A stretch of 63,773 nucleotides of DNA, the filler included, from Hausera hauseri (Eukaryota), in assembly GCA_046269625.1 (NCBI GenBank). It is 11 parts of 11 records of this genome, joined end to end, with 100 filler letters (N's around TTAATTAATTAA, not from the genome) between each part and the next. Parts side by side here need not be neighbours in the genome. Positions count along the whole stretch, not along the records: positions 48,105 to 63,773 come from JBJURY010399922.1; 10 more parts are not named here. One strand, given 5' to 3'. The stretch's first letter is position 1, and every line of letters begins with the position of its first letter. The notes under the pieces are model-generated. The model was not told the DNA's origin. It saw only the letters and a list, made by a program, of their open reading frames with translations, and searched no databases. Below, piece by piece: positions 13,279 to 63,773 of the stretch. Position numbers and translations under genes: made by a program.

Positions 13279-14155
13279 GACCTTTCTCCATTTTGTCTTT
13301 CGCTTGCAAAAATTTACTTCTTGTTCAAAATTACTTCTGTATTCACCATCAACAATTATAAATGCATAAATCGCTAAAATATGAATTATTGTGAATGCTA
13401 AAGCTGAAAGTCGAATTTAAATGACCTTGAGAACTGTTCAACTGCTATCGAATGGCCCCGGCCATTTTTATGGGACCCGTTGGTACGAGTTCTCTCGTTT
13501 TGGTTTTGCCGAATTCTGAGATCTGAATAGAGAATGTCTGGNNNNNNNNNNNNNNNNNNNNNNNNNNNNNNNNNNNNNNNNNNNNTTAATTAATTAANNN
13601 NNNNNNNNNNNNNNNNNNNNNNNNNNNNNNNNNNNNNNNNNTTGATAAACTACGAAGTTAAAATTGAATGCCGAACCTTACACACTAATCCAATCATAAT
13701 TTTAAAAAACAGTAGAGAAATCGAATGTAAATCTTTGCGGCCGCAACACGATTATGTAATCCGAATTACTGCCAAGGGTTGAAGACCTGAAACTTTTACG
13801 GCGCGGACTCGTAACGACAAATCAAGAGCAACACGATATAAAGATCTTAGTACCCGTAATGTGCTTACCACAAAAGGGCCTAGTGAGGCGAATAGTTTAC
13901 CGATAATAACTATATTCGGTTTGTCAACTTTCGTTCTTGTCAGCGACGATTTTCTTAGTTTCCAAAAACTGCAATAAACAGCGCAAAAATCAACAGAGGG
14001 ATAAACGGGAAAAAGGGTACCGAGACGGGCTTTAAGATAGTATAACCTGACAATTACAGACCGGGTTATCCTATCATCAGACAGAGGAAGTGTTTTGGTT
14101 CAAAACGATGATATGTCTTAGAATTGACATTTATTTTTATTTTAGCAGAGTAAGT

Positions 14156-16516: not shown

Positions 16517-16582
16517 ACCGTCTACTCGGCACCTCTTCTGACGTAATTGGCACATTCGAGAGTGCCGTTCAGGGAGGAGAAA

Positions 16583-17170
16583 TGTTGTAAAAGTGGCAAG
16601 GAACGTTGTAGAAAGTGCAAGGAAATTTATAATAGAAACCGAAACCGAAAGTAAAACGGAATTTAACAAATAATTATTTAACCACAAATTACGTAACGAT
16701 TATTTAGTGCATGCAGTTATTTAATTTACAACGAATGTAAAAATTGTAAATCAGATAAATAAAGCAGATTAGGGCACACAAATTCCCTGTCGATGAACCG
16801 GACCGATATTTCCAAATTGTGGAGATTGACTTCGTATTATTTTTGTTGATTTCCGACTCTACGATTGTACGTACGGTATTTTTGTTATTGTAAATAAAAT
16901 TGTGTTCTTTCAAAATTCTTTATAGCTTTCCGTCGCTCCTTACGAGGGACTTATACCACATTAAGGATTAAAATTAAAAATAGTATCTATACTTAGGTCG
17001 AGAACTTGCTAAACTACGCAGAGCACAGCACACAGTACACGCATCATAAAACAGTACAAACATTCTAACGAGAACGTTAGGTCTTACCTGCTTATAAATT
17101 CTTGTTCAATTCGAGTTTCATTTATTGTTATAGTTGGGTGTTGAATAGGGCCCACCTTCAACTATTAACA
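16583..17170 (+). repeat. LTR (588 bp), PPT at 16571-16582, degenerate PBS at 17173-17190
   Basis: TGTTG...TAACA termini, preceded by AGGGAGGAGAAA and followed by TT-TAGCGATCCTAGCAGAAC. Confidence 0.85.
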
Positions 17171-18078
17171 TTTAGCGATCCTAGCAGAACAAGTTTGTAC
17201 TTGCTAGACTTTGACTTTTATTGAAAAGTAACGACACATTACCGATCAGCGCTATCACAGCAAATAATTGATTATAGAAGTGTTGGAAAATTAAAATTTG
17301 GGATTTATAGAAACTCTCGGTATTATAACGACATACTATTGAATCGAGAACGAATATTGACAGACATAAATCGGACGATAGTTTAAATTTAATTCCAAAC
17401 GGTAAAAAAATATTAACTTACTCAAAACACGCAAGAATATGTACAGACGGGATAAGACGTTGAATAAACGCACTCCATCTGAAACGAATTTAGCTAATAT
17501 TAAACTCATTAGTTTAAACGTTGTTGAACAGCCGATTGAAGTCAAAGTTCCTGTTAAGCGAATTAAAACTCGTAAGTTAATTAAGCATAATTTAATAGAC
17601 GTTGAAAACATGGTTGAGAATGAAGCTGTAGCGTAGAAGCTCGACATTTTTACATTTGACTCTCTAAATCTGCCGGCGTACGACGGAGATCCGGACGGAC
17701 TTCATGAGTTTTTGACAACCTATAAATTGCACGCAGAAGGTGCTGGACTCGCATCGAACGTAATTATTAAACGTTTGTCATTGTTACTGAAGAATTTGGC
17801 CGCTGATGCCTATAGTGAGCTCACTGATGATGAGAATAAATCTTGGTCCTTCCTGGTAGGAGCCTTAAATCGAAAACTATTACTGACAGTAACTCAGCAA
17901 CAGAAACTTATGGCTTTCCAGAATAGGGTGCAACAGAAGGGTGAATCGGTAACCCAGTTTGCATTCGCTTTTAGTTATGTGAACACTTAAAAATAGCCAA
18001 TATAGCTTAGGCTAAGAATGATGCGGAACACGAGGCTGCAGAAAATGCAAGTCCTCCAGACCTAGACGTCATGATGAT

Positions 18079-18591
18079 TGTGAGTAAATCGCGTCTCTAC
18101 CATCCTACCTCAACATCACTTGATGATTGTAAGATTGATTTATCCATAAGATATTTATTATAAAAGTTTTATACAACACTTATCATCACTCATTAAATGA
18201 GTCTTATTTTCCTCCTTTCCTGAATTTCCTGATTTTCTATTGGCTGTTTACTGAATTACCTTTGAATTAAATTTAAACTTTAATATCCTTTTCAATTCCT
18301 CTTCACATCCCTTTCCTTTAAGAATTTTTGCAGTTTCTCCACATTTCTTTCCAGGATTCAGCCGTCGCGTGTTGTAGTACATATCGTCGGTCGTGTTTTC
18401 TCTCGATGACTTCGTATGGCCCTTCATATTTGTTTTTATCTCTTGCTCATGATTCCCTCTGTATTAGTATGCTTTCACCGACCTGGAATATCCTTTTACT
18501 GGTATCCTTTCTGGGTCTTTTTTCGTAGTTTCTTCTGTTGATTTATTCTGTCCATGCCATCTCTCTCTATGTATTTTTCTTCCAAATATTA
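18079..18591 (-). mobile_element. Nested LTR retrotransposon 3' end: integrase GPY tail, PPT and 229-bp LTR (18079-18307) inserted into gag
   Basis: TGTGA...TCACA termini, minus-strand PPT AAAGGAAAGGGA (18308-18319), minus-strand YEGPYEVIE; gag homology stops exactly at 18078. Confidence 0.75.
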
Positions 18592-33544: not shown

Positions 33545-36500
33545 ATAAACTTACAATCAGGATCAATTTGTCCTAATAATGAGGATAAACCCCCTAGTTA
33601 CAACAAAACAAACATCTGGTTAGGACATGTTGAGAAAATACCACCCAATTCTCAAATGGTTATACATGTTGGAACAATTTTCCCAGACAACCGTGTCATT
33701 GAATTTGTGCCGAATACTCTTTGAAGTGGGCTATTATTTCCACATTATTGCGTTAATGCAATTGGAGAAACTATTCCAGTAGAAGTTTTAAACCCAACCC
33801 CCAAATATGTCACGTTGTTCACAAAAGCAAAAATCGGACAAGCTTTTGAAACAACTCGTCGTGAGAATTACGATAACAAAGTCGCGACCGTCTCTACCAC
33901 GGAACAAGAAAATACCGAAGATATATTAAATGTCGTTCTCGCAAAAGCGAAGAAAAATCTATCAGATGAATATCTAAAAAATTTCCCAGATCTCATTTTT
34001 GAGTATCTTGATATTTTTGCAAAGAATGAAACAGATATCAGACAAACAGGAAAAGAAATAGATTTATTGCGACAACCTATACCAAAATGGTACTCTCCTG
34101 CAAAAGCACTCCAAAAGGAAGTTAAAGAACAAATTCAAGCTATGCTCGATAAAGGCATTATAGAACCAAGTCAATATCCATGGCCCTCTCCAAGAAGGCT
34201 AATACGACTAAACACCGTTTGTGTGTAAATTATGTTACCTTAAATAAGCACCTGATGAATCATGCTTATCCGATTCCTCGTATACGAGAGATTATAAACG
34301 AACTTAAGGACTGTAAATATTTTACCACTTTAGATTTACAAAGTGGATTTTGTCAAATTCCTGTGGCTGAAGAAGACCGATAGAAAACTGCATTCAACAC
34401 ACACACCGGAGTCTATAAATTCACTCGTATGCCATTTGGTTTAAAAACAGCACCCACATTCTTTCAAGAATTTATTCGCCTGGTGCTAAAAGGAGTACGA
34501 GGTTTATCATACATTGATGACATTCTCATTGCGTCCAAGATATGGTCTGCGCATTTAGCTGAATTGAAAGAAGTATTGGATCAAATTAGACTTGCGAAAT
34601 TAAAGTTAAATCCAAAAAAATGTGAATGGTGCAAGAAGGAAGTTAGATATCTTAAATTTGTTGTTTCTAAGCAAGGAATTTCGACTAGTTCTGATTTAAT
34701 ATCCAAAATTATGGAATATCCCCCACCAACAAATGTCCACGAAATGAAAGCTTGGCTAGGATTAGGAGGATTTTATGCTACATTTATACCTGACTTTGCG
34801 GAAATCAACCAGCCTCAATATAAACTGTTAAGAAAGGACCACAAATGGAAATGGACAAAAGAAAACCAAAATGCATTTGACGAGATCAAAAAACGAATGG
34901 TATTCGCACCTATATTGAGATACCCAGATTTTTCGTTACCATTCATTCTGAAAACCGATGCAAGCATAAAAGCAATTAGCTATATATTAGCCCAGCAAAG
35001 TCCAGAGGAAACAACCGAGCATGTAATCGCCTACAGAGGACGAAGTTTAAATAATGCAGAACGAAAATACTCAACCACTGAATTACAGTTATTAGCCATT
35101 CGCGATGGATTGCGACATTACGAGTATTATGTTTACGGTCATAAAATCATATTTACCGACCATAAGGCACTTTTATCTTTACGCTCCGACAATAGACATG
35201 TATCAAGTCGACTCCAAAGATGAAAGTTGAAGCTTTTAAATTATGACCTTGAATACCTATATCGTCCTGGCAAAGAAAACATGGATGACGACGCGCTTTC
35301 GAGAATCCCATATTATAAGATAGTAGCTGCAGTTTATAAACCATTAGATAATGAGAATGACAAATAACTAAATGAGAAAATCATTAATGATATGTTGCAA
35401 GAACAACGCCAAATTAAAGTAGGAAATATCGAGACCTTACAAAACCAAGATCCCTTTATTGTTCGAATCAAACAATTAATCAACGGACAATCAGTTGACT
35501 CAACATCGAACCATATTCAAAAATTTTATGAAAAGAACCGAGAAAATCCTGAGATCGAAAATGGCGTTTTACGACTAAGAGTCGGAGAAAGAAAACTGAT
35601 CCTTGTACGCACACCGGCCATCAAGGCTGTCATGCTACAGGAACACGATTCACACTTGGCTGGACATCCATCTTTAAACAATACCTTGAAGCGTATAACC
35701 GCAAAATATGACTGGCCTCAAATGAATAAAAATATTGAAGAATGGATAAGTTCGTGTAAAATATGTGCTACAAGAAAAGATAGAGGATCTCGTGTAAAAC
35801 CATTTTTAGGAAGCTTACCTGAAGCACGGAAGCCAATGGAAGTGTGAACAATGGATATCTCCGGACCCTTCTCAGCTTCAGACTCAGGATACAAATATAT
35901 ACTGTCCCTTGTTGACTACTATTCTCGCTACGTCAGACTGGTGCCATTAAAAACCATGACGAGTAGCACAGTTGCTAAAGCCTTTTTCTATAAAATTTTT
36001 GCTGTACTAGGCACCCCGAAACAGCTGCAAACTGACCGTGCACCATATTTTATCAGCGAATTTTTCGAAAAATTGTCAGAAATATTCCAGTGCAAACATT
36101 TGCTAACGACATCATACCATCCGCAATGTAACGGCATGGTTGAGAAAATGAACCGTATCATCCAAGGTATCCTCCCTACAAAGGTAGCAAATGATTAAAC
36201 CATTTGAAAACTACGTCCTTTGCAATTAACACTACGCCTGTCAAAAGTACCAATCATTCACCTTTTGAGATAATGTTTGGACGATTACCTTTACTACCAT
36301 TAGATACGGATTTACTACCATCATCCTTATTAACCAGTGATCACATGGATGACCAATACCAGATTTTGCTAAAACGACTTGAATACATTCAACGTGAAGC
36401 AAAAGTTTGAAGAAAAATACAGAGCCGGATATAAAAAGCAATTTAACAAGAAAGCACGACCACATACTTATAAGATTGGAGACTAATGGTTCATTACCCT

Positions 36501-36782
36501 GCAGCAAAGAAAGGCAAATCGTTAAAATTAACGCGTACAGGCCAAGGACCGTACAAAGTTGTTTATGTGCGTCCACAAACGCATTTCATTCAGAAAGGAC
36601 CTGATAAATACAAGACCATGTATGTTCAACGAGTAACTCGAGCGCCTACATCATATAACGACTTCATACGCGAAGCAGAGCTAGAATCGCCCAACACAGA
36701 AGAGCCCAAAGTAGCAGAACTATGCAAAACTTACTCGATGAATAACTCAGAATATTACTCATTTCATTTCATTCAGAGCTGA
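33545..36782 (+). mobile_element. Degenerate Ty3/Gypsy pol (RT-RNase H-integrase-GPY), related to the large element
   Basis: LDLQSGF, MPFGLKTAP, SYIDD, ILKTDAS, HDSHLAGH...CKIC, QTDR, YHPQCNGMVE and VHYPAAKKGKSLKLTRTGQGPY. Confidence 0.93.
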
Positions 36783-37700
36783 TACATGGCTATCCTTTCT
36801 TCATGCGTTTATCATGCCTATTACAACTGAAGGCATCAACCTAACGGTAGCACCACTTAATGTATTGGTTGAACGCACCACAATTATCAATGTTGATACA
36901 AATAAACCTAGTATTTGTCTTCGAACCCACTTGCCGGTAATAATACATCATAAAGTTGATTTTGTCTTCACATTACAATATAATGTCTTCTCAGTGTGCA
37001 CAATTCTTGAAGCACATAACGAAACTTCCTGTTCCGTCAATTACGAATCAACGTATACGTACTATGTAACACTGAAGGTCAATAATACCGATGCAATTCT
37101 TTGGCAGCCAAATATGACTTTTTCACGTTCCCACTCATCAAGCAATGAACATATTGAAAACTTCCGATGTATTTTCGCGCAATCCTTTTATCGCCTATTT
37201 CTTACAACATGATATTGAAATTTCTAGTATCGATCTTGTAAGACAACCACCTTGTATGAATTTCCGCACCACACAGTTATTACCCATCAAATTTGAGATC
37301 AGCATATGGATCGACCCTATCTCTACATCTATACAACAACCACATTATTGTTATCTTAAGCGGAATGATATTCGTTCATGCTGCACGCTCTATCCAGACA
37401 TCTAGTACAGAATCCGTTTAGATGCATATCAAACAATGGAAAATAGTCAATCCATTAGAGTGCATTCTCATCGCATTCCTATTTTATTTTCAGTTAAACC
37501 AAACATACATATTCCAGCCCTTGCCATGAAGCGCATTACTTCTCCGCGATCTACGAAACAGATGATAACACCGAAATTAGGCACTACACCCACCTATAAG
37601 GATAGGGGAGACCGAGACCAAGACCGAGACCAAGATCGAGATCGAAACCAAAATCAAAATCTCAAATGAAAGTCAAAAGTTCAGATTAAACCACAGAATC
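36760..37700 (+). pseudogene. Post-integrase accessory ORF-A homolog
   Basis: PISTSIQQPHYCYLKRNDIRSCCTL aligns with PLNTSIPKPGYCSLARRRITVCCVL of 48579-49487; followed by a T-rich segment and a GACCGAGACCAA-type repeat. Confidence 0.7.
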
Positions 37701-38569
37701 AGTATAAATACAGGATCAACGGCCATATACGTTGAAACAGAAATTACATAAACATGTATTTTATGGGAAATGGATGAAAGAATTTCCATATACAGACCGT
37801 GTTGAGATAATACTGTAAAACACAATGAATGAACGAAACATCATGGTAATATGTACAGGTTCTGACGAAAAAGTTATTATCAAGTACGAGACAAATAAAA
37901 AAATTCTGTAAAAAGNNNNNNNNNNNNNNNNNNNNNNNNNNNNNNNNNNNNNNNNNNNNTTAATTAATTAANNNNNNNNNNNNNNNNNNNNNNNNNNNNN
38001 NNNNNNNNNNNNNNNCGATGATTTTGAAATATCCGTCGTTTTCTCGGAGCTGTTCAGGCTGCGTCCGCTCTCCACGGCGTCCTCTTCAGTACTGACGGCT
38101 TTTACAGTGACGAACCACCATTATATAGGGTTTTTGTGGTGACGTCACTGGAGCTTCTGAACGCATCTTAAGCGCCATTAAGCGTTAATATCGTGTTACA
38201 CCAAGCAATGATTTTAATAAGATGGAAAGAATTTCAGTGACAACCATTATGTTTATTAAACATATGTAAACTGTCACCTAGACGCTGCTAACTGTGTATC
38301 ATAATATATTTTTACCCCACGTATACTACTACCATCTACTGACCAACACTTGTCTTTAGTTTTGTCCCTTAATTACTTGTTTAGATTAGAAATGTATAAT
38401 TTGTATTTATTATAAGCTGTTGTGTATTTATTGTACTGTTGTGTATTTTATTGTTTTGCACTTTTGTTTTATGTTGCACCATGATCTCTGAGGAACATTG
38501 ATTCGTTTCATTATGTACCTATATATAACTGAAATGAAAATGAAGACTCTCTGGCTCTGACCTTTTTTT

Positions 38570-48104: not shown

Positions 48105-48536
48105 TTCTTAGAAGGCACACAGTTCGCCATTAATACTACTCCACATCCTGCGACAGGATTCACTCCATTTTTTATGATGTAAAATAAAGAAGCTGTACTG
48201 CCTACAGATTTAGGATTGATTCCATATACAACTAGAAGGAAGGATTTAGAGCAGAATTTTATCGAAGTATTACAATCAAGATTTCACAAATGTTGGGAAA
48301 TAGCCAAAGAATTATCTAAAGAATACCAGGAACAATTCAAGAAGCAGTATGATAAAAAGGCTAAACCACACGATCTAGAACCCGAAAACTTGGTCTACGT
48401 ACACTATCCAGTAGCCAAGAAAGGCACGTCTCTTAAGCTTACTAGAACAGGTAGAGGACCTTATGAAGTTACTAAGGTTACACCAACCACAGTTTATATA
48501 AACAAAATTGGCACGGAAGAGGTCATATTAATTTAG
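48105..48536 (+). pseudogene. Integrase C-terminus with GPY motif (continues from 63119-63773)
   Basis: FAINTTPHPATGFTPF, KKQYDKK and TGRGPYEV. Confidence 0.9.
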
Positions 48537-48578
48537 AGAATAGTCGAAACGGAAATAAGGCCAAATAAACGCTATAAT

Positions 48579-49871
48579 TTGCCTTCAGGCAAAACAAATA
48601 AAGAAAAGAAAACGTCGTCGATAGTGACTAGACCAATATCGTATGTGCAAATAATCCTGGCCTTATCGTTAATCGCTTCGTATATACCCACAGTGAAATC
48701 CATCACTCAGACCGAAAAATGGAAGGATATCCAAAACTTACAGTCACTTAGAGTACGCGATATGGATTGGAGAAAACCATGTGCATGGTTTGAAGCAAGC
48801 GTACCTATTCGGAGCCGCGTAAAATTTCAAATAATATTTGTAACCAGGAAAACGATGAGAACGTGCGATTTTCCGTACGGAATTCATAGGAAATTCTGTA
48901 GTTTAGATTTTGGACAAACCTACGGATACGGATTTCAAATGTTTTATTTATATCAGTTCGGAGCTCAAGCCTACATAAGTACGGAGCTCTCAATAAGAGT
49001 GCCCCAACGAAAACACGATAATCAAGCGAAGACGGACGAAATAATTAGAAGCATTGATCCAGTTAAAAGGTTCTTAGACTACAACATTATTGGAATTCAC
49101 AAGGATTTGAAGAACCAATGTATTCGAATTGAGACCAAGATCGGACTACCAGAAGACAAGGAAATATCTGTACAATTTACACCATTGAACACTTCAATCC
49201 CTAAACCGGGATATTGTTCTTTGGCCAGACGACGAATTACGGTGTGCTGTGTACTGCTACTAGGACAGGAGTATCAGTTGCAATTCGATTTGTACAATAC
49301 GTATCTCGGAGAACCAAGTATCTATATAAAAGGATATCGTCCGAAAAACGGAATAAGGCAGCTTCCGTTTCCAACCACTACGAGACAACCGTCCACAGTT
49401 ACGAGCACAACTCTCACTACTACGATAACCACTTCAGACGAAATGCCAAGGGGCATACCTGTTAAGATCTTGGAAAAAAAGCGATAGGATTCTATTCTAC
49501 GCTGAAGAGACGTTAAATCGGGACGTCAAAACTGAATGTCGCACCCTGCACACCAACCAAGTTATGATTCTGAGAAAGAATAGTCAGAAAACTAAATGCA
49601 GGTCATTACAACCACAACACAACTATATAATCCGAATCACCGCAAAGGGTAAAACCCTAAAACCTTCACAGTCCGAACGCATGACGACAAAATCGAAGTA
49701 ATACAGTATAAAGATCTTAGCACTCAAAATGTGTTCACCAAGGAAGGTTTTACTGAGGAAAACAATTTACCGATAATAGCTATATTTAGTTTGTCAATTT
49801 CCGTTCTTGCTATATTAACGGCGATGATTTTTCTAGTTTCCAAAAATTGTAATAAGCGCAGTAAAAATTGA
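48579..49871 (+). CDS. Accessory ORF-A: type I membrane protein (signal peptide, Cys-containing FN3-like repeats, Thr-rich stalk, TM helix); disrupted after 49487
   Basis: YVQIILALSLIASYIPTVKS; LDFGQTY, LLLGQEY and SLQPQHNYIIRITA; TTTRQPSTVTSTTLTTTITT; TM IIAIFSLSISVLAILTAMIFLV (~49773-49838) then KNCNKR. Confidence 0.7.
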
Positions 49872-50032
49872 GAGGGAGATAAAAGGGAAAATGGGCACCA
49901 AGACGGACTCTATGATTGCATAAACTGACAAATACAGATGGGGTTATCCTATCATCAACAGAGAAAATGTTTTGTTTCAAAACGATGATCTGTCTTAGGA
50001 TTGACCTCTATTTTTATTTAAGCAGAGTAAGT

Positions 50033-52375
50033 ATGACCGAGAAGGCGAAAAATCCAGCAATCAGTTCCAATTACGATATCGATGATTTCCTCCAGCAGCA
50101 CGTCACTGTTCTTAAACCCCTGTCCAAAGGTCTATACCGACAAATTGGAGAAAACCTGAAGACTCAGAAATATTTAGAATTCGGCTAAGAGAGTAAAATA
50201 CCAAACGGACTAAAATGGGGCTTGGAAGAGAATCGACTGTTTCGATTATACGCCATGCGAAACCCAAAGGATGCACGGGCATACCTTTTAAGAGATGTAA
50301 TTCCCTATGAGCCGACACATCAGCAATTGTACGTACATGTCGCTAATGGAGAAATTCAATACAGGATCGTAGGACAAACCTGGTGTACGCAAAAAGGGCA
50401 GCAGTTGAAGTTTAGTTTTTATGCGCTATGTTGCTATAGTCTCATGAATTATGCCCTGAAATTTAGGATCGCAGATCTTCCGACCAAAATCATGATCGAA
50501 ATGACGTGGCGAACCGATGTAATGAAGCTGCTACCACCGTTATTATATGTACAAAAACCATCAGAAGATGAGATAGAGTAAAATGGAGAGTCCTACAGAT
50601 TAGTTCCAGACGGTAGGAACACCAGAATATTGGCCGTGAACTATGGAGAAATGGATGACGGGTGGTATGTTCCAATCGAGGTCTCTATTAGAAATACCAA
50701 TGGAGAAGAAATCATAAACAGAATAATTGCACCTCGAGCTAAGAAAAAGGACACTTTTCCCGACGTCACAGGAATTACAAAAGTACAGCTCAAAAAGGGA
50801 AAATATTTCTTGGAGATCCAAGAAAATATAAGCCATTGCTTATATGGATACGTCGTTACCGGATTCCGAGTTCACGAAGCGTTGGAGCGACTAGAAATTA
50901 GGCAAGAATACATAGCCGGAATTCGAGAAGTAAGCCGAAACCCAGCCGTTGTGAGCCAAGTAGAAAATACTTTGATGCGGAAAAGAGGTTGTCTGCTTTC
51001 TCCCTCAACATCTCGCGAATCACAATTTAAGATAATGATAGAAGCCATGAATGGCGAACGATTCAAATTCCCTAAGCTAATGACCGCAAGTCAACGGACC
51101 AAGTTTATAAAAGATATCTATGACTCAATACGATGGGACCACGAGTGGAAATCCAGAAACCACATGCAGAACGCAATATCCGAAAACAACCGCAAAATTC
51201 TGATACAAAAATTTCAAAAAGGGTTTAGTGAATACCCGAATTATCGGCAAATTGAACCACAAGGACATAACCAATTCCGAGTAACAATCCCTAATAATCC
51301 AATGGAAGTTCCAGACAGCCGACAGAAACCACTCACCAGAAAGTCTCGAAAAGAAATGACAGTAAAACCAGATTCAAGAAGACAAAAGACAAAGATGACT
51401 TTTTAGAATTTATTAGTAAAAAGAAGGACAAAATCAGTAAGAGTCAAATAGAAGAAATCAAATCAACAATAGACAGCTTAATCCAGGAAAGAAAAATGAG
51501 CGATCAGAGAGAAGCGTAGAATCAAGACAAAAACCACGGTAATCAAACGAAAATTCCCAAATCCAGAACCCTTAAAACGGAAGTCAACGTTATTCGGAAG
51601 AACTGGGAGGAAGATACCACGATTACAGGTACACAATTTGGCCAAGTGAAAGAATATAAACGAATCCTCGTCATGGCCGAATACTATAACAAAGGAAAAA
51701 TTAAAGAGGCTATATTTCATTTATCCACCGTCCCGAGAAGATTAGTGAGTGGAAACGGATATGCCAGAGAAGATCACACTATCGGCAGATACTTAGCCTC
51801 AATATTCCAATCAAAGAGCGGCACCAACAGACTAACAATTCCTGTGAATACCCAAGTCAGAATTCAGCTGAAAAGACAATACAAGAAGACTGGAATACCC
51901 GATTTGGACAAACAAGAAATAGTAGAATAGACCCTGGTTGCGGTATCCGACGATCCGAGAAAAAGCTCAATAGACCCCAATCAAAAGAGACTGTACGGAT
52001 ACTTATACCAAGACAGAAAAGGACTGGTATTCGAGAGAATAGAAGTGGACGAAAACCTAGTGGACATTGATGCCGCTGAAAAAGAAGAGTGTCCCGTCTG
52101 TGACGCGGATCTCTATCAAGGATTTGTAGTCCTAGACAACAAAGATTGCAATCACAAGTATTGTCGGTACTGCTTAAAAACGTGGACCCTGAAAAATGGG
52201 AAAACGACCTGCCCTGTATGAGAGCCGAGGCTACCAGACTAAGATACTATTCAAATGGAGAAAATAAAAAGATAGTAGAGATAAAACCCGAATAGGCCAC
52301 TACGTCCTATCATTTTGATTTGCAATCGCCGTCGAACGAAACGGATTCAGAAGCGGACTTACGCGGACGAATGAA
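50033..52375 (+). pseudogene. Accessory ORF-B, unknown N-terminal domains plus C3HC4 RING finger (52090-52221)
   Basis: Fragments 50033-50188, 50222-50581, 50630-51406 and 51646-51930, then CPVC-x15-CNHKYCRYC...CPV*. Confidence 0.78.
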
Positions 52376-52428
52376 CCAATTACGCGGCACCTCTTCTGAC
52401 GCAATGGGCACATCCGAGAGTGCCTTTC

Positions 52429-52440
52429 AGGGAGGAGAAA
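52429..52440 (+). promoter_or_regulatory. Polypurine tract
   Basis: AGGGAGGAGAAA abuts the LTR TG; identical at 16571-16582. Confidence 0.88.
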
Positions 52441-53151
52441 TGTTATAAATGACTATGAACAAATTGTAATTATGTACAGAACCGAAATGAAAGCGAAACT
52501 AGTGAAACTAGACTAATAAAACCACGATAAATCAATTGATTAACTATGAAATATCACAAAATGCCAGTTAGTAAATGTCAGGCGAATTTAATCAATAGAA
52601 ATGGCAGAAAATTCCAAAAAATGTATAAAATTAGGTAGCAACGACGCTATGTAAGTAGTCAACGTAATATATAAAGTTAGTTAATTATTGCCAGTGTAAT
52701 TAGTTAATCAGTCAGATACGAATTAGCAAATATTACTATCAGGCGAATTGTTCAGTTATTCCAAAATTTTGAAAGACTTGACGATTAAATCCGGTACATT
52801 GATTGCATTGTTGAAAATTACTAGTATTGCTGATCCGACATTCTCATTATCGGTGTGGTATTATTGTTGTTATTGAATAAACTATTATATCTTAAAAATT
52901 TCTATAGTTTTTCGTCACTCCTTACGAGGGACTTGCATCGTACTAAGTTCTAAAATCAAATTTTAAAATTTTTAGTTAGGTCGAGAAATTTGTAATTTAC
53001 GCAATCACTGCACGCAGTGCACACATCTTAAAATAGTGCAAACATGCTAACGAGAACGTTAGAACTTATCTGCTCAAATAACATTTAAATTTTGAAAATT
53101 ACTCATTGTTATAGTTGGGTGTTGGATAGGGTCAACCTTCAACTACTAACA
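52441..53151 (+). repeat. LTR (711 bp)
   Basis: TGTTA...TAACA inverted termini, TATAAAA near 52624, AATAAA near 52877; bounded by PPT and PBS. Confidence 0.88.
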
Positions 53152-53153
53152 TT

Positions 53154-53171
53154 TGGCGACCCTAGCAGGAC
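53154..53171 (+). promoter_or_regulatory. Primer binding site (probably tRNA-Arg)
   Basis: TGGCGACCCTAGCAGGAC lies 2 nt after the LTR; its complement TCCTGCTAGGGTCGCCA resembles tRNA-Arg 3' ends. Confidence 0.8.
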
Positions 53172-53588
53172 AGTTTGAACTTGCTAGTCTTGACTCTTAG
53201 TGAAAAGTAACGACATATTAGCGATTAGCGCTATAACATTAAATAATTGATTGCAGATTATTGTGAAATTAAAATTTGGGATTAGAAAGAAACCCTCCGT
53301 ATTATAACGACATATTATTGGGTCAAGACGGATATTGACGGACATAAGTTAGAGGATAACCTAAAACTCATTCTAAACGGTAAAGTGAATATTATTTTTC
53401 GTGAAACACGTAATAGAGTTTATAGAGAAGGTAAGACGTTGGGTACACGCACTTTACCCGAGTCAAATTTAGTTAATACCGAACTTATTGATTTAAACGC
53501 TGTTTAACAGCCTATTGAATTTAAAATTCCTGATAAGAAAGTTAGAACTCGTAGGATAATTAAGCAAAATCTAATAAACGGTGAGAAT

Positions 53589-54660
53589 ATGGTCGAAAAT
53601 CAAGCAGTAGCTCAAAAATTGGACACTTTTACATTCGACTCTCTGAATCTTCCGGCGTACGACGGAGACCGGGACGGACTTAACGAATTTCTAAGGACAT
53701 ATAAGTTGCATGCAGAAGGTGCTTGACTAGCAGCTAACGTGATGATTAAACGTTTGTCGTTATATTTAAAGAATTTGGCCGCTGATGCCTATAGTAAACT
53801 CATGGATGATAAAAGAAAACTTGTTCCTCACTGGTAGGAACCCTGAATCGAAAATTATTGCCGACTGTAACTCCGCAACAAAAACATATGACTTTTCAGC
53901 ATAGAGTACAACAAAATGGTGAATCAATAACCCAATTCGCTTTTGCATTAAAGAAATTGGCAAACAGTTACGTAAGCACTTTAAGAATAGCAAATATAGC
54001 TAAGGCTAAAAATGAAGCAGAACGCGAAGCCGCAGAAAAGGCAAGTCTCCCCGACATAGACGTCATGATGATGACACAATTAATAAATGGTATTTGGTCT
54101 AAAGACATAGTAAAGCAATTGATTCTAGCACGTCCCGAAAATTTTGATAGGACATTGCAATTAGCTCAAGACTTGGAAATGACATTGGATAGATATGCCA
54201 GAAACAATGACAGAAACGATAGAAATAATGATCAAGGTGATCGAAGCGATAAAAATCAAAATAATAGAAATGATAGACGATTTAATAAGAATTACGGAGA
54301 CCGAAACAAGAACGGTAATTAAATTCGCAGAAACGAGCGATATAGTAATCAGAATTTTGATAACAGTCGAAATAGTTTTTCTAATAAATCAAACTATACT
54401 ACGGATAAACGTATAGATGGCTCTAAAAATTTTAATCGACAAAGCGACAGTCGAAATTACGATAATCGACAATATGGAGATAATAGACAGGTCCGGCACA
54501 GCAGAACTACAATAGAAATCCGGGTAGATCGAAATCCCCGTTAAACGAAGATGACCGACAAAAGATCGGAAGAAATGGCAATTTTATTTGTTATACGTGC
54601 GGACAAGAAGGACACAGCGAGATCCTGTCCAAACCCGCGAAGCGTCTCGTTTGTTGAACC
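53589..54660 (+). pseudogene. gag with CCHC zinc knuckle (54589-54628)
   Basis: LPAYDGD..GLNEFL, RVQQNGESITQFAFALKKLA, QLINGI, an N/D/R-rich linker, and CYTCGQEGH/ARSC split by a frameshift. Confidence 0.85.
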
Positions 54661-55357
54661 TAGTAAAACTAATGCAATTAAAAACGAAAACTTTGAAGTA
54701 ATTTACGGTGTCCGTAGAGACACGGGTATGATCATCGAGATACAGGATTTACGACGTTTTTTAAAAGTCCAACCCTTTACTACAGACTTTAAAGTCTTAG
54801 TGGCCAGAAACGAGTATGAACACAAGTTACGACTATTAGAAGTTTATCACTGTCTGTGCGAACCAGAAACAGAATATGAACGTTTTATTGCCCGCCATGG
54901 CTTACTGATATGACACGAAAAAAGAACATTCCTAAGGCAAGCAACGGGTCAGACGAAACAGAAAATCCTGAGATACCGAAATAGGTAGATATAGATGTAG
55001 AAACCGAGTATACTATAAAAACGGTAATCACGGAGACAGAGGCCGACAAAAAAGAAGAATTTCTGGAACCGCTTATACTTAAAATTACCAAGGATAGAGG
55101 CCGTAGTCCATCATTGAGACGAAAATGCAAGGACCGATCGAGATCCCCAATGATAAGGGAAAAGTCAAGCACAAAGAGAGAAGCCGAGATCGCGCTAGAA
55201 AGCGACACAGAATGCGTCTTGAACATTCCGGAAATTGATCTAGTTACGCCAAGCGAAAAAAGGAGCTAACAAAATATATAAATGAAATAAACGAAGTATG
55301 TCCTCTACCCACTAGCGAAAAGGAAACAGAACAATAAGAGAAACTCGATCCTAAGAA

Positions 55358-57499
55358 TTGGAAAGTCAGACGCTCATGGAAAATGCTAATAAATTAAAAA
55401 GAATGAGGACCAACTGTCTAAACCCCGAAGTAGTACAACAGAATATAGAGAAACTTAAAGCAATGAGTGAACAAGTGGATATTTCGGGCAAAGAACAACA
55501 GTTTGTAGAGAGATTATATAAAAAGATAAACCTATATAATGAAGGGAAACTAAGCGAAGCCATAGACTTAGATCAGCCCAAAGAAGTGTCGAAGGGAACT
55601 TTATCTCAGTGGAAACACGAATTAGAACGCTGGAGCAAATGAAAGACAAAATTTCCGGAGACGTGAGATAAAGCTACCCAAGACATTGAAACTAGAGTTA
55701 ACCAAGCACAATCGCTACTAACTACATTAGAAGCCAACCCGAAACTAAAAAGAGTAGCACGTAATTGGAAGCGTATTATGAATGAAATTAGATTTGCGAT
55801 AGCCGAACAACTCAAGGGAAAGCCGGTCAAAGAATGAGATGCAAATGACCTAGAGATGTTGGGCATAGATTCAATAGACATTCCACCCTTGATGGAAATG
55901 ATGAAGGTCGCTTCGACAGCATCAAAGCAATATACAAGTTTGGAAAATCGTATTAGAATTGAAGCCGAAAAACGGTCGCAGATATATGGTTTAAGGAACA
56001 GAATTATGCACAACGGTAACGAGGAAACACATAAAATAATTATGGCTTGCATCCTCGAGTTTGATGAATACAAAGATGAGTTTGACTATGCCTACCGGAT
56101 CGTAGATTTTATTAAAGGCCCAGATGATGAGCTAGAAGATGCTCGTAACATGTTAAGCAAAGCAATATTGGCAAAGCCAGAAATCGCCAATCAGTTGAAT
56201 GAATGGTCCAAAGTAATAAGAAGGTTGAGTGCATTAATAAAGAATCGAAGAAGCGAATTCCCGGAAAGTGAACCTACAGTGAAGAAGCGTCTAAAAGAAG
56301 ATGCCCGAAATCTAGATACAATGAACGCAGAAATTGACATCCAAACCCAATTTGAGGCATTACGCCAATTGAACTTCATGGAAAAGAAACAAGAACTAAC
56401 GATACTAGATGATATCTATAAAATGATCGAGGAAACAAATTTCATGAGGAAACGGAATGCGACTTGCGATTTCTGTCCGCGATTGAGAGACGTCCGCTTA
56501 AAAGGGATACGATATTTGACGACTAAGCCTATCAAGGAAATCTCGATTCAAGATCTTAAAACTTTGGACTTTTGTCCCGAATATCGGTCTGTCGTCAAAG
56601 AAACGGTGCAGTTCTTGCATCACTCACAAAGATGGGCGGACGGAACAGATCAAAGGCATCATACTGAACTAATTAAAATAAAAAACGACCATCACCTCAG
56701 TTTCGAAGAGATCAAATTTGTAAAAAAATTATTAGATGCGATAGACCCAGATTCACTATTGATAGCAGAAATGGCAGAGATTAGTGACGAGAAGCTAAGA
56801 CAATTGCTGCAACAAATACAACAAGTTGAAGAAACTTGCATTAAGACGAAACAGACAGCAATGAGATTAGAGGAGTTAACTAGAGAACTCGAAGGCTATA
56901 AAAACAAGTACGCTCTTACAGAAGCAGAAAAAGCCGACAAGTCACAATTCGTGCAAAGGTGGCAAAAAGATGTCACGTCCGAACTGACGAAATATCAAGA
57001 AAAAGGGTTAATTTCACCGAAAGAACTATGTTCGATGTTAACACTGCTCCATCAAACGTCTAATAATGGACATTGTTTCCGAACGACAAAAATAGTTCAG
57101 TTGCTACAGAAACTACAAGAACTCAGAAAAATTACATGGACTGAAAGTGTGGATATGCCAACCGATACACCTTTAAGGGACTATCAACTGCCGAATAACG
57201 AGAATGAAACAGAATGGGAGGCATATTTGGATGCAATGATCGCTGAAAACCCGAAAACTCCCGTACGATTAAGCGAAGCAGAGGTATATTTTTCGGACCA
57301 AAGATTTAATGTGGGAATGCTACTAGACCCAATACAAACTGAGAAAGATTTAATTCAGTTGATCGAAGTAAACCTCACGGAAGTTCAATTAAGACAGTTG
57401 GTCCCTACTCTAACTAAATTAGCTAGCGAAGGTACGATATATAGTACGGTACCAAAACTTTTACTTAAGGAATATGCCAAAATATTGAAAACAAAATGA
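55358..57499 (+). CDS. Large helical/coiled-coil region of unknown function inside the element (547-aa open segment 55856-57499)
   Basis: Long E/K/L-rich ORF colinear with gag, with heptad-like stretches; no recognised motif. Confidence 0.7.
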
Positions 57500-58097
57500 G
57501 AAGAAAGAATTTCAGTAAAGATAGTAGCAGACTGGATGGTCGAGAAAGAACACGAGTTCACTACACACTTTCGTGTAAAAGATGTAATAGAGTGGATAAG
57601 AGATAATGGACCAGGAGTTAAATTACAGACTCTATTTTAGAGGAAGAATATTAGAGGAAACGGAACTGCTAATAGAGGTCGGCATTATTCCAGGTGAAGC
57701 ACACCGGATAGTTGTAACTATCCCTGTCGAAGAAACAAAGGAAGAAGCTATAAGAAAAGCTAAACAGAAACAGTGCGTAGGACGAATCATAGGAGTTCGA
57801 GATCCCGTAATGTATTTCGAGTACTTGCAGACAGATAGAGATGATGAACAATATGATAAGAATTTAGCACCCATAAACGGTAATGTACCTCCTATAACAA
57901 AACAGAGGCGTCCTGTCGGCAGACCACGGAAGTTACGAGAAGAAGTCGATTATAATGGAGACCTAATCAAAGAGTGGAGGCAAATGTCTATACCAACCTG
58001 CAATGCAAACAATGAGGAACTGAACGAACTTATGAAAAAATTGATACGTATAGTAAACCATTCTAGTTTCAGCAGCGATATATTAGATGAGAAATAG
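57500..58097 (+). CDS. Ubiquitin-like domain (~57509-57725, one frameshift) followed by an AT-hook
   Basis: ISVKIVAD...RVKDVIEWI / YRLYFRGRILEETELLIEVGI resembles ubiquitin [29 protein letters not shown] follows. Confidence 0.65.
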
Positions 58098-58448
58098 AAG
58101 GCCATATTTAATGCCGCCAAGGTTATGAAGAGTCTTCGATGTAAATTATCTAGAAGTACCTTGAGCAACGAAATGATAATCGAGAAAATTATGGTAGAAA
58201 ATACCATAGAAGAATTGAGAAAAGCGATGTTATATCTGGCCATTAAAACTAACCCAAACCGAGAAAACGAATTTAACAAGGCTACTACTTTGGCAAGGAA
58301 GGCTGCCAGGAAAATGCCTCGGGAAGTAAATTGGTCTAAGTTATTCAAAAAAGAAGAAGAACATCCAAGTGGATTTTTCTTCGATAACAATAAATTCGGA
58401 GATCTGTTACGAAACGTAACCGGAAACCGCACAGGAAACGAATCGAAC

Positions 58449-60633
58449 TGGCTAATTAACTTTTTGACCATGATGATGTTAATAAGGCAAATGAGCGCAG
58501 TTACAGTGTATGACTGCGACAAATTTAGACTTGGCCAGAAATACTCATTAATGGATTTAGAAATGTGGGAAGACACGAGACCCCACAAATTAGAAACAAA
58601 AGAAAGGAATTACGTAGAGGCAGGAAGATTAGACATGCACACCGGACACTGTCAAAGTGCAGAATACGATACCGGGAAAGGATTAGAGTCAAATGTCGTA
58701 GTAGTAGACTTTTATGAAACCGAAATGCGCGTACAGAAAGTGATGTTCCATAGTGTTACTAAACTTTATACTGAGAACCATAAATGTCACATTCAAGATG
58801 GCACATGCCCATTTCGAAGTTCCGTAGTAATTTGGGAACCCACAACTAAGTCTGATTGCAACTTTATCAGAATTAAAGAACTAAAATTTAACGAGACAAC
58901 GGGAAAACGGTACGTAAGTAGCACTGAAACTAATTCCAAAACACGAGAAGATGATCGCTGATACTCAGGGGCTTAAGTTTGTTAAGAAAGATGTATTCAC
59001 AAGATGCGATGTTATAATGTATGCTACTAACTATAAAGCATTTTTTGTGGCCGAGACGGAAATAAACGTCCGAACGTTTAAGCTCGAGACTCAAGACATC
59101 CGGATTGAGGATTACCTGAAAAACAGAGATGACTATTTCTATTATAAAGGACAGGCCGGAATAGCTAAATTGTACCACAAAATGATAAAGAATGACTGCA
59201 AGTTAGATTTAGAGGTTATGAGAACTAAGCTAGCCCTGATATATGTTAATCCTGAGTTGGCATCACCAATAATTCCGATGAACGAAGGTGTTTTTGGACG
59301 AGTAACCGGAGAGGTTTTATTGACGTATGAATGCGAAAAGAAAGACGTACCAATTAATGTAGAAGAGAAAAGGTGTATACAAGAGTTTCCAATGATATAC
59401 CAAGACGCACCAAGATTAGTAACCCCAATTACCAGAGTGTTGTTGGCAAATGCCACGCAACCGACAATTTTGAGAGATTGTAAGACTAGCTTAGGAGAGC
59501 CGATGTTCAGACGTAGCGAAACCGACTGGATAAGTTTACCGAATGGCGGTATTATCGCACTTCCTACCAAACTGACAGGAACAAATTTGATAAAAGGAAT
59601 AACCGATGATAAATTTCAAGATACAGCAGCAAAAGGTATTAACCGACAAAAAGAGGTAGAGGCATTTAGACAATTCCTCTCTTTTCCCCGCCAGCGTACA
59701 CATGAATTAAATAGAGCGATGCATACGATACTAGAAGACTCGCGCCACCAGGCGAAATGAGAGTCATTACTCGATGTTGGTTATTACAAGAAGGTAACTA
59801 CAGAAATATTGTACAAAATTTGGGGAAGATTCCTGATATTCGGACAGGCCGCGTCAGGGTTTCTAGCGATATACTTCTTAATTCAACTAGTAAAAGCCAT
59901 AATTCAAGCAATCATAAATGGATACGAGATATTCACCTTGACAGGATTTTCGCGTAAAATTTTAACGGCTATTATTACTCCCTTCGGCAAAGTCCTAAAG
60001 GCTTATGAAGAGGGTAAATGGAAAACAGATGTGAAGAGACATGTTGGCTACTATAACCGAAAGCGGAAAAGACGCATAATTAATTACAAGCAAAAATTCA
60101 TAGATAGTAAGACACGAAGAAATAATTCTGACGATGAGAAGCCTAAGGGAGGAGACGCCATCTCCAGATTGAACCGGCACAAAAATTACTCTATTATGAA
60201 ACTACTATTACCGATATTGCCGACAATGGTACCTATATATGAAGATTGCGAGAAACAATCTATAAGCTTATGCAAGACAGACGTCTATCAGAAACCATTT
60301 AACATAGAGGACCCCTATGAAGGAACAAAACGCTACGGGATATTGCGTAAGATCCGCGAAACAGAGAGAACGTTTATTCCTCATCGTCGCTGGGCAGTCG
60401 ACGATCACGGTGTGATGTATTCACCTAGAGTGCCTAAGCCAAACGAGACGCAAGCATTATTTTCCAGAAGCCGTGAGGTACACAATCTCCAGAACCAAGA
60501 TGTTAGGCTACCAATTCGAAATCAAGGAATGGAAAATACGATGAATACGAATAATGAATTATACCCCATTGGAGAACTAAGGCAATTAATCGAGCAACCA
60601 GTTGGAACCACTGAAGTTACCATAAACGATTAA
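58449..60633 (+). pseudogene. Envelope glycoprotein, chuvirus-G-like (probable class III fusogen), frameshifted
   Basis: Internal signal WLINFLTMMMLIRQMSA followed by VTVYDC; CHIQDGTC..VIW..C; GVFGRVTGEVLLTYEC.......CIQEFP; LVTPITRVL; C...PMF....W; pre-TM and TM IWGRFLIFGQAASGFLAIYFLIQLVKAII. Confidence 0.78.
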
Positions 60634-60636
60634 AAG

Positions 60637-63600
60637 ATGTCCACGGCACGGCGCCCCAAGACAGCACCAAGTTATTACGGTACAATAATCGAAGGTAGGC
60701 CCTTCGCAAAGATTCAATTAGAAGAATGGGAGGTTTACGCGCTAATAGATACAGGATCTGAAATATCACTAATAAAATACGATTCGATACCACAATTTCT
60801 ACGGAAACAACTGTATCCACCTCTTACGACAGACTCAGGAAGCACTGGAGCTTTCGGACAGTCATCGAAAAGTAAATTTCATTGGAAACCAGAAATTCAC
60901 ATAATGGGACAATGCTTCCGTCACGGATTTTTAGTAATGGAGCAATTAGCGGATCATGTAGTATTAGGGTGTGACTTGTTGAGGCAACTATTTAATATAG
61001 CAATCGATTTCAATGCAGACAAGTTAATAAAACTTGGTCCAATAAAAGGAGTTAAAACCACTGAAGACAGGAAATTTGGAGAAGTGCAGATTCCAGTGGA
61101 CGAAACCATACCACCCAGAACAGAAATTTTGATATATGCTCAGATACCTCAGGATGACGATCAGCCAATATATTTTGAACCAAAGGAATCGCTCGATCCA
61201 AACATCGTGCTCAGCAATGTCTTGACAAGATTATCAACAGGCCGCGCGCCAATCAGAATATCGAATAATGCGCCTACTCCAAACCAAACTGTACGCCAAT
61301 ACTACTCTAGGACACACGTGTAGAGTATTATCAATTACCATCGAGGAGAAACCGTATAAAGGCGCTGAGTTTCCGCCCCACGTCGAGACTATATTTTTAC
61401 CGGAATCCTATTGTCGATTCTACGAATTACTCTGCCGTTACAGCTTTATTATCGCTAAAGATAAAGAAGATATTGGCCGAGACAAGACCTTAAGGCTCAC
61501 AATTCCACTTAAAAAAAGCCTAGATCTAACGACGAAATAGACTTAGAGGATCAAAAGATGTCGAAATGGTATCCTCCTCCACACTCGTTACGGCCAGAAA
61601 TAACTAAGGAAGTTGAAGGAATGTTAAAGGCTGACATAATTAGACCAAGCTGTAGATCTTGGTATTCAGGTATCCTCATGGTTAAGAAGAAAGGTGCCAG
61701 TAAGCACAGATTCTGTATCAACTATCGAGCATTAAATACACGTATGATGAAGGACTCTTTTCCGTTACCATCAGTAAAGGAAGCTTTGGACAGACTGTCT
61801 GGAGCCAAATAGTTCACCACGCTTGATTTGCAAACTGGATATTGGCAAGTAGAAATAGAAGAGGAAGATCGTTACAAAACGGCATTTAAGACACATTACG
61901 GCATATATGAATTTAATGTTATGTCTTTTGGGAATCACTACTGGACCAGCCATTTTTACCCTTATGATGAAGAAAATGCTAATGCGACTAGAACACGCAT
62001 TTGCCAATTTGGACGATGTTATGATTGCATCGAAAACGGACGAGGATCATTTAAAGGACATTGAAGATACACTTATGAGACTAGAGCAGGCTGGACTGAA
62101 ACTGAATCCCAAGAAGTGCAAATGGGCTCAAAATGCTGTGTCGTACCTAGGACATACTGTAGGAGAAGGAGGATCAAAACCGGATAGATTACTATTGAGC
62201 AAAATATCGGACTGCATGGAACCTCAGAACCAGAAGGAGTTAAAACACTGGTTAGGGTTATGAAGATGTTATGCGACCTATGTACAAGATAATGCGAAGA
62301 TAAACGCACCTTTATATAGCTTATTAAAAAGGAATTAAATGGATATGGACCGATGTCTAACAAAAGGCTTTTGATGAAATGAAGAAAATTCTAACTAGCG
62401 AACCAGTTTTAAGATATCCTGATTTCAACCTGCCTTTCATAATCAAAACATACGCAAGTAGGGAAGGTATCGGATATGAATTAGCTCAAAAACGCGAAGA
62501 CGAGGAGCTAGAACACCCAAACGCATATGGAGGGTGTTTTCTAAAGAAAGCAGAAAAGAACTATTCTGTTACAGAGTTGGAAACGTTAGCGATGAAAGAA
62601 GCCCTGCGACATTTTAAAGTGTATGTCTATGGACAAAAGATCGTAATCGTTACTGATCATAAGGCAGTTACAACTTTAAAGGGTAGAGCAAATAATCCGA
62701 CCTGTAGACTTAACAGATGGATTGAGGAGATCTCACGTTACAATATTAAATTTCAGTACAAACACGGAAGTAAACATGTCGACGCTGATGCATTATCTAG
62801 ACTTAGAACTAAAACGAGCACCGTTACGATAATGAAGAAGGCTCACCTTGAAGGTCTGGTAGAGAGACAACGGACTCTTGTGTTAGATAAAGCATTAAGG
62901 ATTTCTGTCGAACAAAAGAAGGATAGAGTGATACAACAGATTATTGAGTTCGCGAGCACCGGCAAAATGCCACAAGGCCACCAATTGCGAAAACATCTAA
63001 GAAAATATGGCAACAAATACTGCTTAACGGGAGATTCGAGTCACGAAAATGTGTTATACTATGAGCGAAAAGGACGGAAATTAGTCGTCATGCCGAAAGA
63101 TTACGTACAGAAGTACTCATGGCGGAACATGATTCATACTTAGCCGGATACATGTCGTGGAAAAAGACATTGGAAAGGATATTAAATAAGTATTATTGGC
63201 AATGCATTTATATCGACGTAAGGAATTGGGTGAATACTTACGAAGTATGCGCAACCGAACAGAGAAAGGTGAAGAGTTACATTGCCGAACTTAAGCCCAT
63301 TGACGTGCCCGATAGACCAATGCAAGCAATGTTTATGAATATTGTAGGACCCTTGCATACAACCCACAAGAATGATAAATACATACTGACCTGTGTAGAT
63401 CGATTGACTCATTTCGTTAAACTTATAGCATTATTAGACCAAAAGGCCGAGGCCTTGGCAGAAGCGGTAGTCTGGAAAATCATTTGCAGATACGGGCCAC
63501 CCGAACAAATATTGACAGATCGAGGAAAAAACTTTACGAGCGAATTGTTTGAGAAAATTACCAAGAATTTTGAGATTGAACGATTAACTACCACAGCTTA

Positions 63601-63773
63601 CCATCCCCAATGTAACGGAATGGTCGGGCGGATGAACGTGACCGTTATACGGATCTTATCCACAGTAGTCGCAAAGACCAGAAAGATTGGAATGAATTCT
63701 TAGAAGGCACACAGTTCGCCATTAATACTACTCCACATCCTGCGACAGGATTCACTCCATTTTTTATGATGTA
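60637..63773 (+). pseudogene. pol: aspartic protease, RT, RNase H and integrase (stops and frameshifts)
   Basis: ALIDTGS, RFCINYRALN, LDLQTGYWQ, NLDD, YSVTELETLA, VTDHKA, ADALSR, LTDRG and YHPQCNGMV. Confidence 0.95.

Follow-up and report, generated by a model that had tools for sequence, protein, structure and literature searches.

Burro, or GYPSM1, denotes giant gypsy-like long terminal repeat (LTR) elements of planarians, and the section on it in a 2019 review places env in frame between gag and pol and calls this the first such case (PMC6431247). In addition, Ty3/gypsy 'ancient errantiviruses' with a GAG-ENV-POL order and an HSV/gB-type ENV (HSV, herpes simplex virus) have been described in Platyhelminthes, Nematoda and Bryozoa; the accessible text of that work notes the likeness of gB-type env to Chuviridae G and argues for an ancient origin of this env, and its supplement holds 9 flatworm entries (PMC13524379). 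In this work, we have analysed a stretch of 63,773 nucleotides (nt) from Hausera hauseri (hereafter the window, with positions counted along its full length), which consists of contigs joined by N spacers and carries, on the last contig (48105–63773), an element with a viral-type glycoprotein, G. We regard the element as, very probably, one dead member of a high-copy Ty3/gypsy family; in its intact relatives, capsid, fusogen and enzymes share one reading frame, and the resulting chain is predicted to be threaded through the endoplasmic reticulum (ER) and cut. The layout is real but already published, and the window element adds to the known GAG-ENV-POL design; the first-pass annotation of the window had taken an env in mid-polyprotein to be new, a claim that gives way to the descriptions of Burro (PMC6431247) and of the GAG-ENV-POL elements (accessible text of PMC13524379). 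Since the layout is known, this copy adds little alone, and it is too decayed for direct study. The parts worth following are the threading and cutting of the polyprotein and a second signal-plus-anchor membrane module behind integrase, the latter being the less-known part of the finding.

Outside Ty3/gypsy, the Anakin BEL/Pao elements of mosquitoes likewise hold a chuvirus-type G inside an LTR element, but their host is an insect and an in-frame position between gag and pol is not described in the accessible text (PMC7642597). Atlas virus of hookworm, as far as its accessible text goes, has its env in a single stop-free Gag-Pol-Env polyprotein, and internal membrane entry therefore has a precedent among LTR elements, although this virus is a Belpaovirus with class II, phlebovirus-like Gn/Gc and a C-terminal env (bioRxiv 10.1101/2021.11.23.469668). 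Cer1 was also checked as a precedent and rejected on the accessible text of PMC10309623.

The part of the window around G contains the following features.

58095–58097, + strand: in-frame TAG 5' of G, read from the sequence
58446–58499, + strand: predicted internal signal sequence, hydrophobic; its last residue, Ala, stands three residues ahead of the conserved G start motif (58509)
58500–59829, + strand: G ectodomain, a chuvirus/gB-type (class III) fusogen, broken; assigned by Pfam, profile and the fold of a relative
59830–59919, + strand: predicted transmembrane anchor of G (hydropathy 2.05; PF24664 positions 522–601)
59920–60690, + strand: linker that joins the anchor to protease, basic and of low complexity; it contains the in-frame TAA (60631–60633), read from the sequence
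60634–61323, + strand: retropepsin protease (PF00077, E 3e-7), then a segment aligning to the protease-RT linker of relatives (tblastn; RT, reverse transcriptase)

We have found that PF24664, the Monjiviricetes fusion glycoprotein family, matches two pieces of G (E 8e-22 and 6e-15). A HMMER scan of the whole protein library with the middle piece returned 277 proteins at E<=0.001, and when a profile of 52 of these was compared with PDB, all 38 matches were herpesvirus gB (best E 5e-5). The fold tests were made on P0008, a natural relative that shares 31% identity with the window piece (model pLDDT 81), in place of the broken window protein. Its model matches herpes gB in PDB (E 3e-14), and among viral models the top matches are the glycoproteins of Tacheng tick virus 4, a chuvirus, and of chu-like viruses (E 8e-45, TM 0.53, 22% identity); lower ranks hold the G of xinmo-, qin- and rhabdo-like viruses, and gB appears from rank 43. 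The proposed search against viral fusogens, run with this relative, has thus matched chuvirus-type G, gB and rhabdo-like G, and the 'chuvirus-like' label of the first-pass annotation agrees with both the PF24664 match and the closest fold. As the names of 20 further G matches are almost all missing, this label rests on Pfam and fold. We regard 'chuvirus-like class III fusogen' as a fair label for G on these modelled and profile-based grounds, which is a narrower statement than capture from a chuvirus. A homologue search by word index returned no match for the G piece, and the window G piece had no locus in viral or metagenome contigs; with alignment A3 as query, metagenome contigs yielded 3 loci, and viral and genome contigs yielded none.

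The evidence on the reading frame comes from natural relatives, here called P0001–P0157 for proteins and L001–L003 for DNA loci. Fifteen of the 27 best G matches extend as far as the anchor; in 11 of them, the chain goes on into protease, recognized in 10 by Pfam and in 1 by its motif. Eight relatives run from G through integrase without a stop (P0002, P0005, P0016, P0027, P0151, P0154, L001 and L003), and Gag or a zinc knuckle stands in one chain with G in P0006, P0010, P0014, P0027 and L003. Actually, L003 is a complete frame of 2,693 codons, which runs from Gag and the zinc knuckle to a membrane anchor behind integrase. The chains of relatives are collinear with the window across both stops that flank G, with G before the TAA and protease after it. 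The distance from anchor to protease motif is 307 codons in the window vs 129–389 in the 9 relatives with correctly located anchor and protease motif. An AT-hook-like motif and a probable ubiquitin-like domain sit 5' of the TAG, and in relatives they are in frame with G. Overall, comparison with relatives supports the view that the ancestor made one Gag-X-G-Pol chain, X being the region between gag and G. The ancestral polyprotein proposed in the first-pass annotation thus stands as far as single chains occur in intact relatives, while in the window itself the frame is broken many times. Among these relatives, the full G-Pol polyprotein P0002 carries the label of a hypothetical protein in a genome bin assigned to Flavobacteriaceae; it is probably animal DNA in a metagenome bin.

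The breaks in the window deserve a closer look. By reading of open reading frames (ORFs), 57606–58097 and 58125–58961 share + frame 3 and are separated by one TAG (58095–58097), and 59809–60633 and the protease ORF share + frame 1 and are separated by one TAA (60631–60633), just as first annotated. These two stops are 2 of at least 14 in-frame stops on a coding path of 11.6 kb, which also contains ~11 frame switches, both counts being approximate because the path through the unalignable X and the end of gag is uncertain. At such a density of stops, each of the linkers beside G has a ~0.6 chance of containing one. Stops are also present inside G and RT. Breaks within G, and a membrane module behind integrase, were absent from the first-pass annotation. 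It had given the glycoprotein an internal signal peptide and a C-terminal transmembrane helix. Both membrane segments are indeed predicted by hydropathy (58446–58499 and ~59830–59919), but G is not a single ORF. Its reading passes from frame 3 into frame 1 near 58918–58961, it carries a TGA at 59758–59760, and 84 aligned residues are missing at ~58614, with the loss of three conserved cysteine columns; two conserved motifs are 172 codons apart in the window vs 254–280 in 12 of 12 aligned relatives. The TGA is private to this copy: the codon is a different one in 27 sister contigs, which account for 6,910 of 7,003 depth units. The stops beside G are likely ordinary mutations gained after insertion, and not gene ends. 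The contig is a dead, decayed copy and not a catalogue-grade intact element; the inclusion rule of the catalogue in PMC13524379 (accessible text) asks for intact ORFs, and here we see many stops and frame switches.

We have predicted the membrane topology from simple hydropathy. Both in the window and in each of the 12 relatives checked, the conserved G start motif directly follows a hydrophobic stretch; Ala or Gly occupies the -1 position, where cleavage is expected, in 10 of the 12 relatives, and a single strong hydrophobic segment closes G. By the rules of ER insertion, the simplest topology leaves Gag-X in the cytosol, G in the lumen and Pol in the cytosol. A lumenal G with a cytosolic Pol would fit both the predicted hydropathy pattern and the conserved signal-peptidase-like site. 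In the mechanism that we propose, translation would start at gag in the cytosol, and the internal signal would take G into the lumen. Signal peptidase would cut directly before the conserved G start motif, and Gag-X would stay anchored by the signal. The anchor of G would then stop transfer, so that the linker, protease, RT, RNase H and integrase would be made on the cytosolic side, where the element's own protease, which occurs in up to several copies in relatives, may free the enzymes. A second signal behind integrase would likely insert a second surface protein. The single chain would yield capsid, fusogen and enzymes in equal amounts on one membrane, from which they might bud as enveloped particles. 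Concerning the protease, P0005, P0010 and P0151 carry two to five retropepsin-like motifs per chain, some of them behind integrase.

On the other hand, several observations weigh against a single threaded chain. Four of the 15 top relatives that reach the anchor stop at it or soon after (one of them is a free-standing G, and the other three end at that point). The relatives are distant (~30–40% identity), and the window's own subfamily could differ from them; moreover, the integrase tree contains no supported grouping of the window with G-bearing relatives. Two hydrophobic stretches precede G in L003 and P0027, and many relatives show a second, weak hydrophobic stretch after the anchor. Neither flanking stop is among the 40 rows listed for each sister-copy comparison, beyond which lie 491 and 4,114 further rows. 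Finally, L002 has a single in-frame TGA (L002:3058–3060) directly before the G signal segment, on a contig that is otherwise open over 4.3 kb and has no ATG before the hydrophobic core; this TGA may be a lesion, an error or a leaky stop. A leaky stop there would fit the view that, in the subfamily of the window element, gag-X, G and pol are separate frames joined by leaky stops, in which case readthrough would lower G and Pol relative to Gag. Readthrough does lower Pol relative to Gag in many retroelements, and equal amounts of Gag, Env and Pol would be wasteful; both flanking stops of the window are also in frame and within linkers. We nevertheless consider this improbable. The stop in L002 is at a different place from those of the window, and its close relative P0001 is open there; the 8 relatives whose chains span G to integrase are all free of stops in between; the copy carries many other in-frame stops; and neither flanking stop stands in a known classic readthrough context.

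Another explanation is that G is a separate env gene, expressed from a spliced or internally started message and only placed 5' of pol. Drosophila gypsy is an example of env made from a separate message. In the window, the ATG at 58125 opens a frame into G, and among the weaker matches free-standing G proteins of ~650 residues dominate, with 0 of the 79 that reach the anchor at ranks 38–150 having a protease motif behind it; the accessible text of PMC13524379 also treats GAG, ENV and POL as ORFs, without the word polyprotein. Yet this ATG lies more than 100 codons ahead of the signal, the first stop after the G anchor comes 270 codons later, and the closest relatives are fused on both sides of G, which makes a purely separate env slightly less probable still, though a spliced message may exist besides the polyprotein. 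That the arrangement is accidental, i.e., that a chuvirus gene inserted into this one copy or that repeats were joined into an assembly chimera, is something we hardly believe. A high-copy repeat has in fact collapsed into this contig during assembly, and sequencing run X1 has no single contig that spans the stretch. But the same order recurs in independent intact chains and loci, and the best G matches are retroelement polyproteins instead of free viral G. A run search gave X1, possibly the source, as the one run with the element and listed no RNA run. In X1, 31,419 contigs fall on the element, most of them 80–95% identical, and these sister contigs cover all 30 bins of it. The element is thus a member of a large, diverged, high-copy family, and one chain from Gag to integrase, decayed in this copy, is the reading that we retain.

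The remaining parts of the element proper are as follows.

48105–63773, + strand: whole element contig, 15,669 nt, a circular assembly with a 77-nt end overlap and its two LTRs collapsed
52426–52440, + strand: polypurine tract directly 5' of the LTR, read from the sequence; the same tract occurs in a paralogous contig
52441–53151, + strand: putative LTR, 711 nt, TG...CA with a 5-nt inverted end, AT-rich, read from the sequence; single copy
53154–53171, + strand: putative primer-binding site directly 3' of the LTR, starting with TGG, read from the sequence
61513–63143, + strand: RT and RNase H, interrupted by stops and changes of frame (PF00078, E 9e-16; PF17919, E 2e-28)
63065–63773, + strand: zinc finger and core of integrase (PF17921, E 1e-13; PF00665, E 1e-13)
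48123–48536, + strand: C-terminal part of integrase, past the circle junction (tblastn of relatives, E down to 2e-21)

The ends of the contig overlap by 77 nt, which marks it as assembled in a circle, and integrase homology, traced by tblastn of relatives, runs on from the contig end (63773) into its start (48105). Round the circle, the order is polypurine tract, LTR, primer-binding site, gag, X, G, protease, RT, RNase H, integrase, membrane-protein frame, accessory frames and RING finger. Since the assembly is circular, only one LTR copy is present; next to this LTR-like segment stand the primer-binding site and the polypurine tract, and an LTR pair and a target duplication are not visible in such a collapsed form. 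No tRNA gene was found within the window. By sequence, the element is a Ty3/gypsy (Metaviridae) LTR retrotransposon: pol has the order protease-RT-RNase H-integrase with a gypsy-type RT, and the RT matches that carry names are Ty3/gypsy-type or generic pol. The element is not of the BEL/Pao kind for which the first-pass annotation cites chuvirus G capture, as RT and RNase H match gypsy-type families and proteins and no BEL/Pao Pfam family was matched. The host is an animal and, to judge from the likeness of env, probably a flatworm.

The integrase tree (45 rows; 43 of 47 matches retained by coverage) joins the window element only to a second pol on contig 33545–37915 (support 97/91) and leaves its deep position open, though 7 of the 8 best pairwise integrase matches are G-bearing chains. 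That sister contig, window 33545–37915, holds a further decayed gypsy pol followed by a signal-bearing frame (36742–37212). A paralogous decayed element, 73–77% identical, lies at window 13642–18591; it extends over the accessory frames, the polypurine tract, the ends of the LTR and the beginning of gag, and it seems to be broken at other positions than the 48105–63773 copy.

Upstream of G, the following segments can be read.

53580–54650, + strand: decayed gag with a capsid-like N-part, an N/R-rich tract and a broken CCHC knuckle near 54590–54630 (tblastn of relatives)
54985–57499, + strand: X region, broken by stops and frame switches; the longest piece is 55838–57499 (553 residues; ORF reading)
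57500–57740, + strand: probable domain of the ubiquitin/SUMO type, interrupted by a change of frame near 57635 (profile of 5 relatives)
57903–57935, + strand: AT-hook-like motif, also present 5' of G in P0003, P0005, P0010, P0151 and L002
58098–58400, + strand: segment at the site of the Bcl-2-like domain of relatives; weak likeness (5.0 bits, 7 of 500 shuffles as good)

Gag is recognized by tblastn with P0006 (E 6e-6) and with the Gag and the knuckle of L002 (E 0.012 and 0.008), and 53580–54650 has no Pfam match. X gives weak helical Pfam matches only, and no match in the Atlas search. The order gag-G-protease first annotated holds, but gag is ~3.5 kb upstream, with several frame changes between (55838–57499 is in frame 2). 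The ATG at 57606, annotated at first as the start of an ORF, is probably not a start, as it appears to lie inside the ubiquitin-like domain split near 57635. The score of that domain with the profile of 5 relatives is weak (8.4 bits, exceeded by 1 of 500 shuffles), and its counterpart in L002 matches Pfam ubiquitin at E 0.005, below the cut-off. P0008 matches Pfam Bcl-2 at E 0.001, again below the cut-off, and pairwise comparison of the Bcl-2-like place with the window was negative. Ubiquitin-like and BCL2-like domains are visible ahead of env in L001, L002 and P0023, and the window scores are weak; when profiles were built from three sequences each for the ubiquitin-like, Bcl-2-like and post-integrase segments, they failed to pick up the corresponding parts of the window.

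Two further features lie behind integrase.

48537–49871, + strand: second predicted type-I membrane module, broken (hydropathy, ORF reading, tblastn)
50189–52221, + strand: remains of accessory 3' ORFs: an exonuclease-like segment that matches an accessory ORF of L001 resembling RNase_T (E 5e-8) and, at the end, a RING finger (zf-RING_2, E 4e-7)

The signal of the second module (48621–48704) shares its frame with the integrase tail, from which one TAG separates it, and the anchor (49761–49853) is in another frame; the ectodomain has a Thr-rich stretch, and its fibronectin type III (Fn3) likeness gives leads only (Pfam E 0.1, Atlas search 0.80). A post-integrase signal and anchor also occur in P0002, P0005, P0151, P0154, L001 and L003, as well as by eye in P0157 and less clearly in P0016. 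The post-integrase ectodomain of L001 was modelled at low confidence (pLDDT 55) as two strand-rich parts around a helix, and the post-integrase region of P0154 used as query gave no match. A literature search, with most subscription papers outside it, found no work that looked related, by title and opening of the abstract, on a fibronectin-like membrane domain in gypsy elements or on signal-peptidase processing of gypsy polyproteins. In the 3,426-residue frame of L001, a third module of signal, ectodomain and anchor stands between two protease domains (L001:4745–5320), and the polyprotein would therefore cross the membrane six times. The chains of P0151, P0154 and L001 end in T-x-V and that of P0157 in E-I-V, and these ends presumably resemble PDZ-binding ends.

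Considering these modules together, we see an even chance that the element encodes a flavivirus-style multi-pass polyprotein with two or three lumenal modules, i.e., the fusogen, a receptor-like and possibly Fn3-type protein behind integrase, and the third module in L001. RT and integrase would then form a loop on the cytosolic side that is held by the membrane at each of its ends. The second protein may be the attachment partner that fusogens of the gB type generally require. How gB-type errantiviruses enter cells without herpes-type helper glycoproteins is a question left open in the accessible text of PMC13524379. The post-integrase module, found in the window and at least seven relatives, is a concrete candidate for such a helper.

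With all parts in place, the comparison with Burro can be completed. According to the Burro section of PMC6431247, the likeness includes an env that matches fusion glycoproteins of the mononegavirus type and stands within one polyprotein, in frame between gag and pol; a Ubl/SUMO-like and then a BCL2-like segment before env, which are weak in the window; and a CCHC knuckle, a RING motif, accessory ORFs, high copy number and decayed copies with stops and frameshifts. The env in frame in one polyprotein is seen in relatives and would apply to the ancestor of the window copy, whose own frame is broken. Unlike Burro, which exceeds 30 kb (PMC6431247), the window element measures ~15.6 kb; BIR, MATH and ankyrin gave no Pfam match among the 24 window pieces scanned; and membrane topology and a post-integrase membrane protein do not appear in the Burro section of PMC6431247. 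Judged by description only, the window element is Burro-like, and we would not file it as Burro, as it has half the size and the tested cargo domains are absent. The relative P0151 (4,844 residues), for its part, adds ankyrin repeats and a C2H2 finger.

The likeness to the elements of PMC13524379, as given in its accessible text, covers the Ty3/gypsy pol, the env between gag and pol, the gB-type fold and the ectodomain between signal and anchor. For the window, the class III fold of the HSV/gB type follows from PF24664 and from the fold of P0008, and env does lie between gag and pol. One stretch of the window G matches a Schmidtea entry (PMC13524379, supplementary file 2) at 11 of 29 residues, by eye. 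The catalogued elements are intact and multi-copy, and a single polyprotein and its processing are not discussed in the accessible text (PMC13524379); the window copy, in contrast, is broken and larger, with X, the post-integrase module and accessory ORFs.

Elsewhere in the window, the contig at 28442–33444 has a 77-nt end overlap (circular or tandem assembly), 27% G+C and no ORF of >=130 residues listed. A 253-residue open frame with an N-terminal signal-like stretch lies at 1630–2391 on the minus strand. Positions 5170–7127 and 9734–13416 hold apparent pieces of host genes, by eye a USP8-like ubiquitin-specific protease and an RBBP6-like RING protein, and other contigs seem, again by eye, to contain spliced animal genes.

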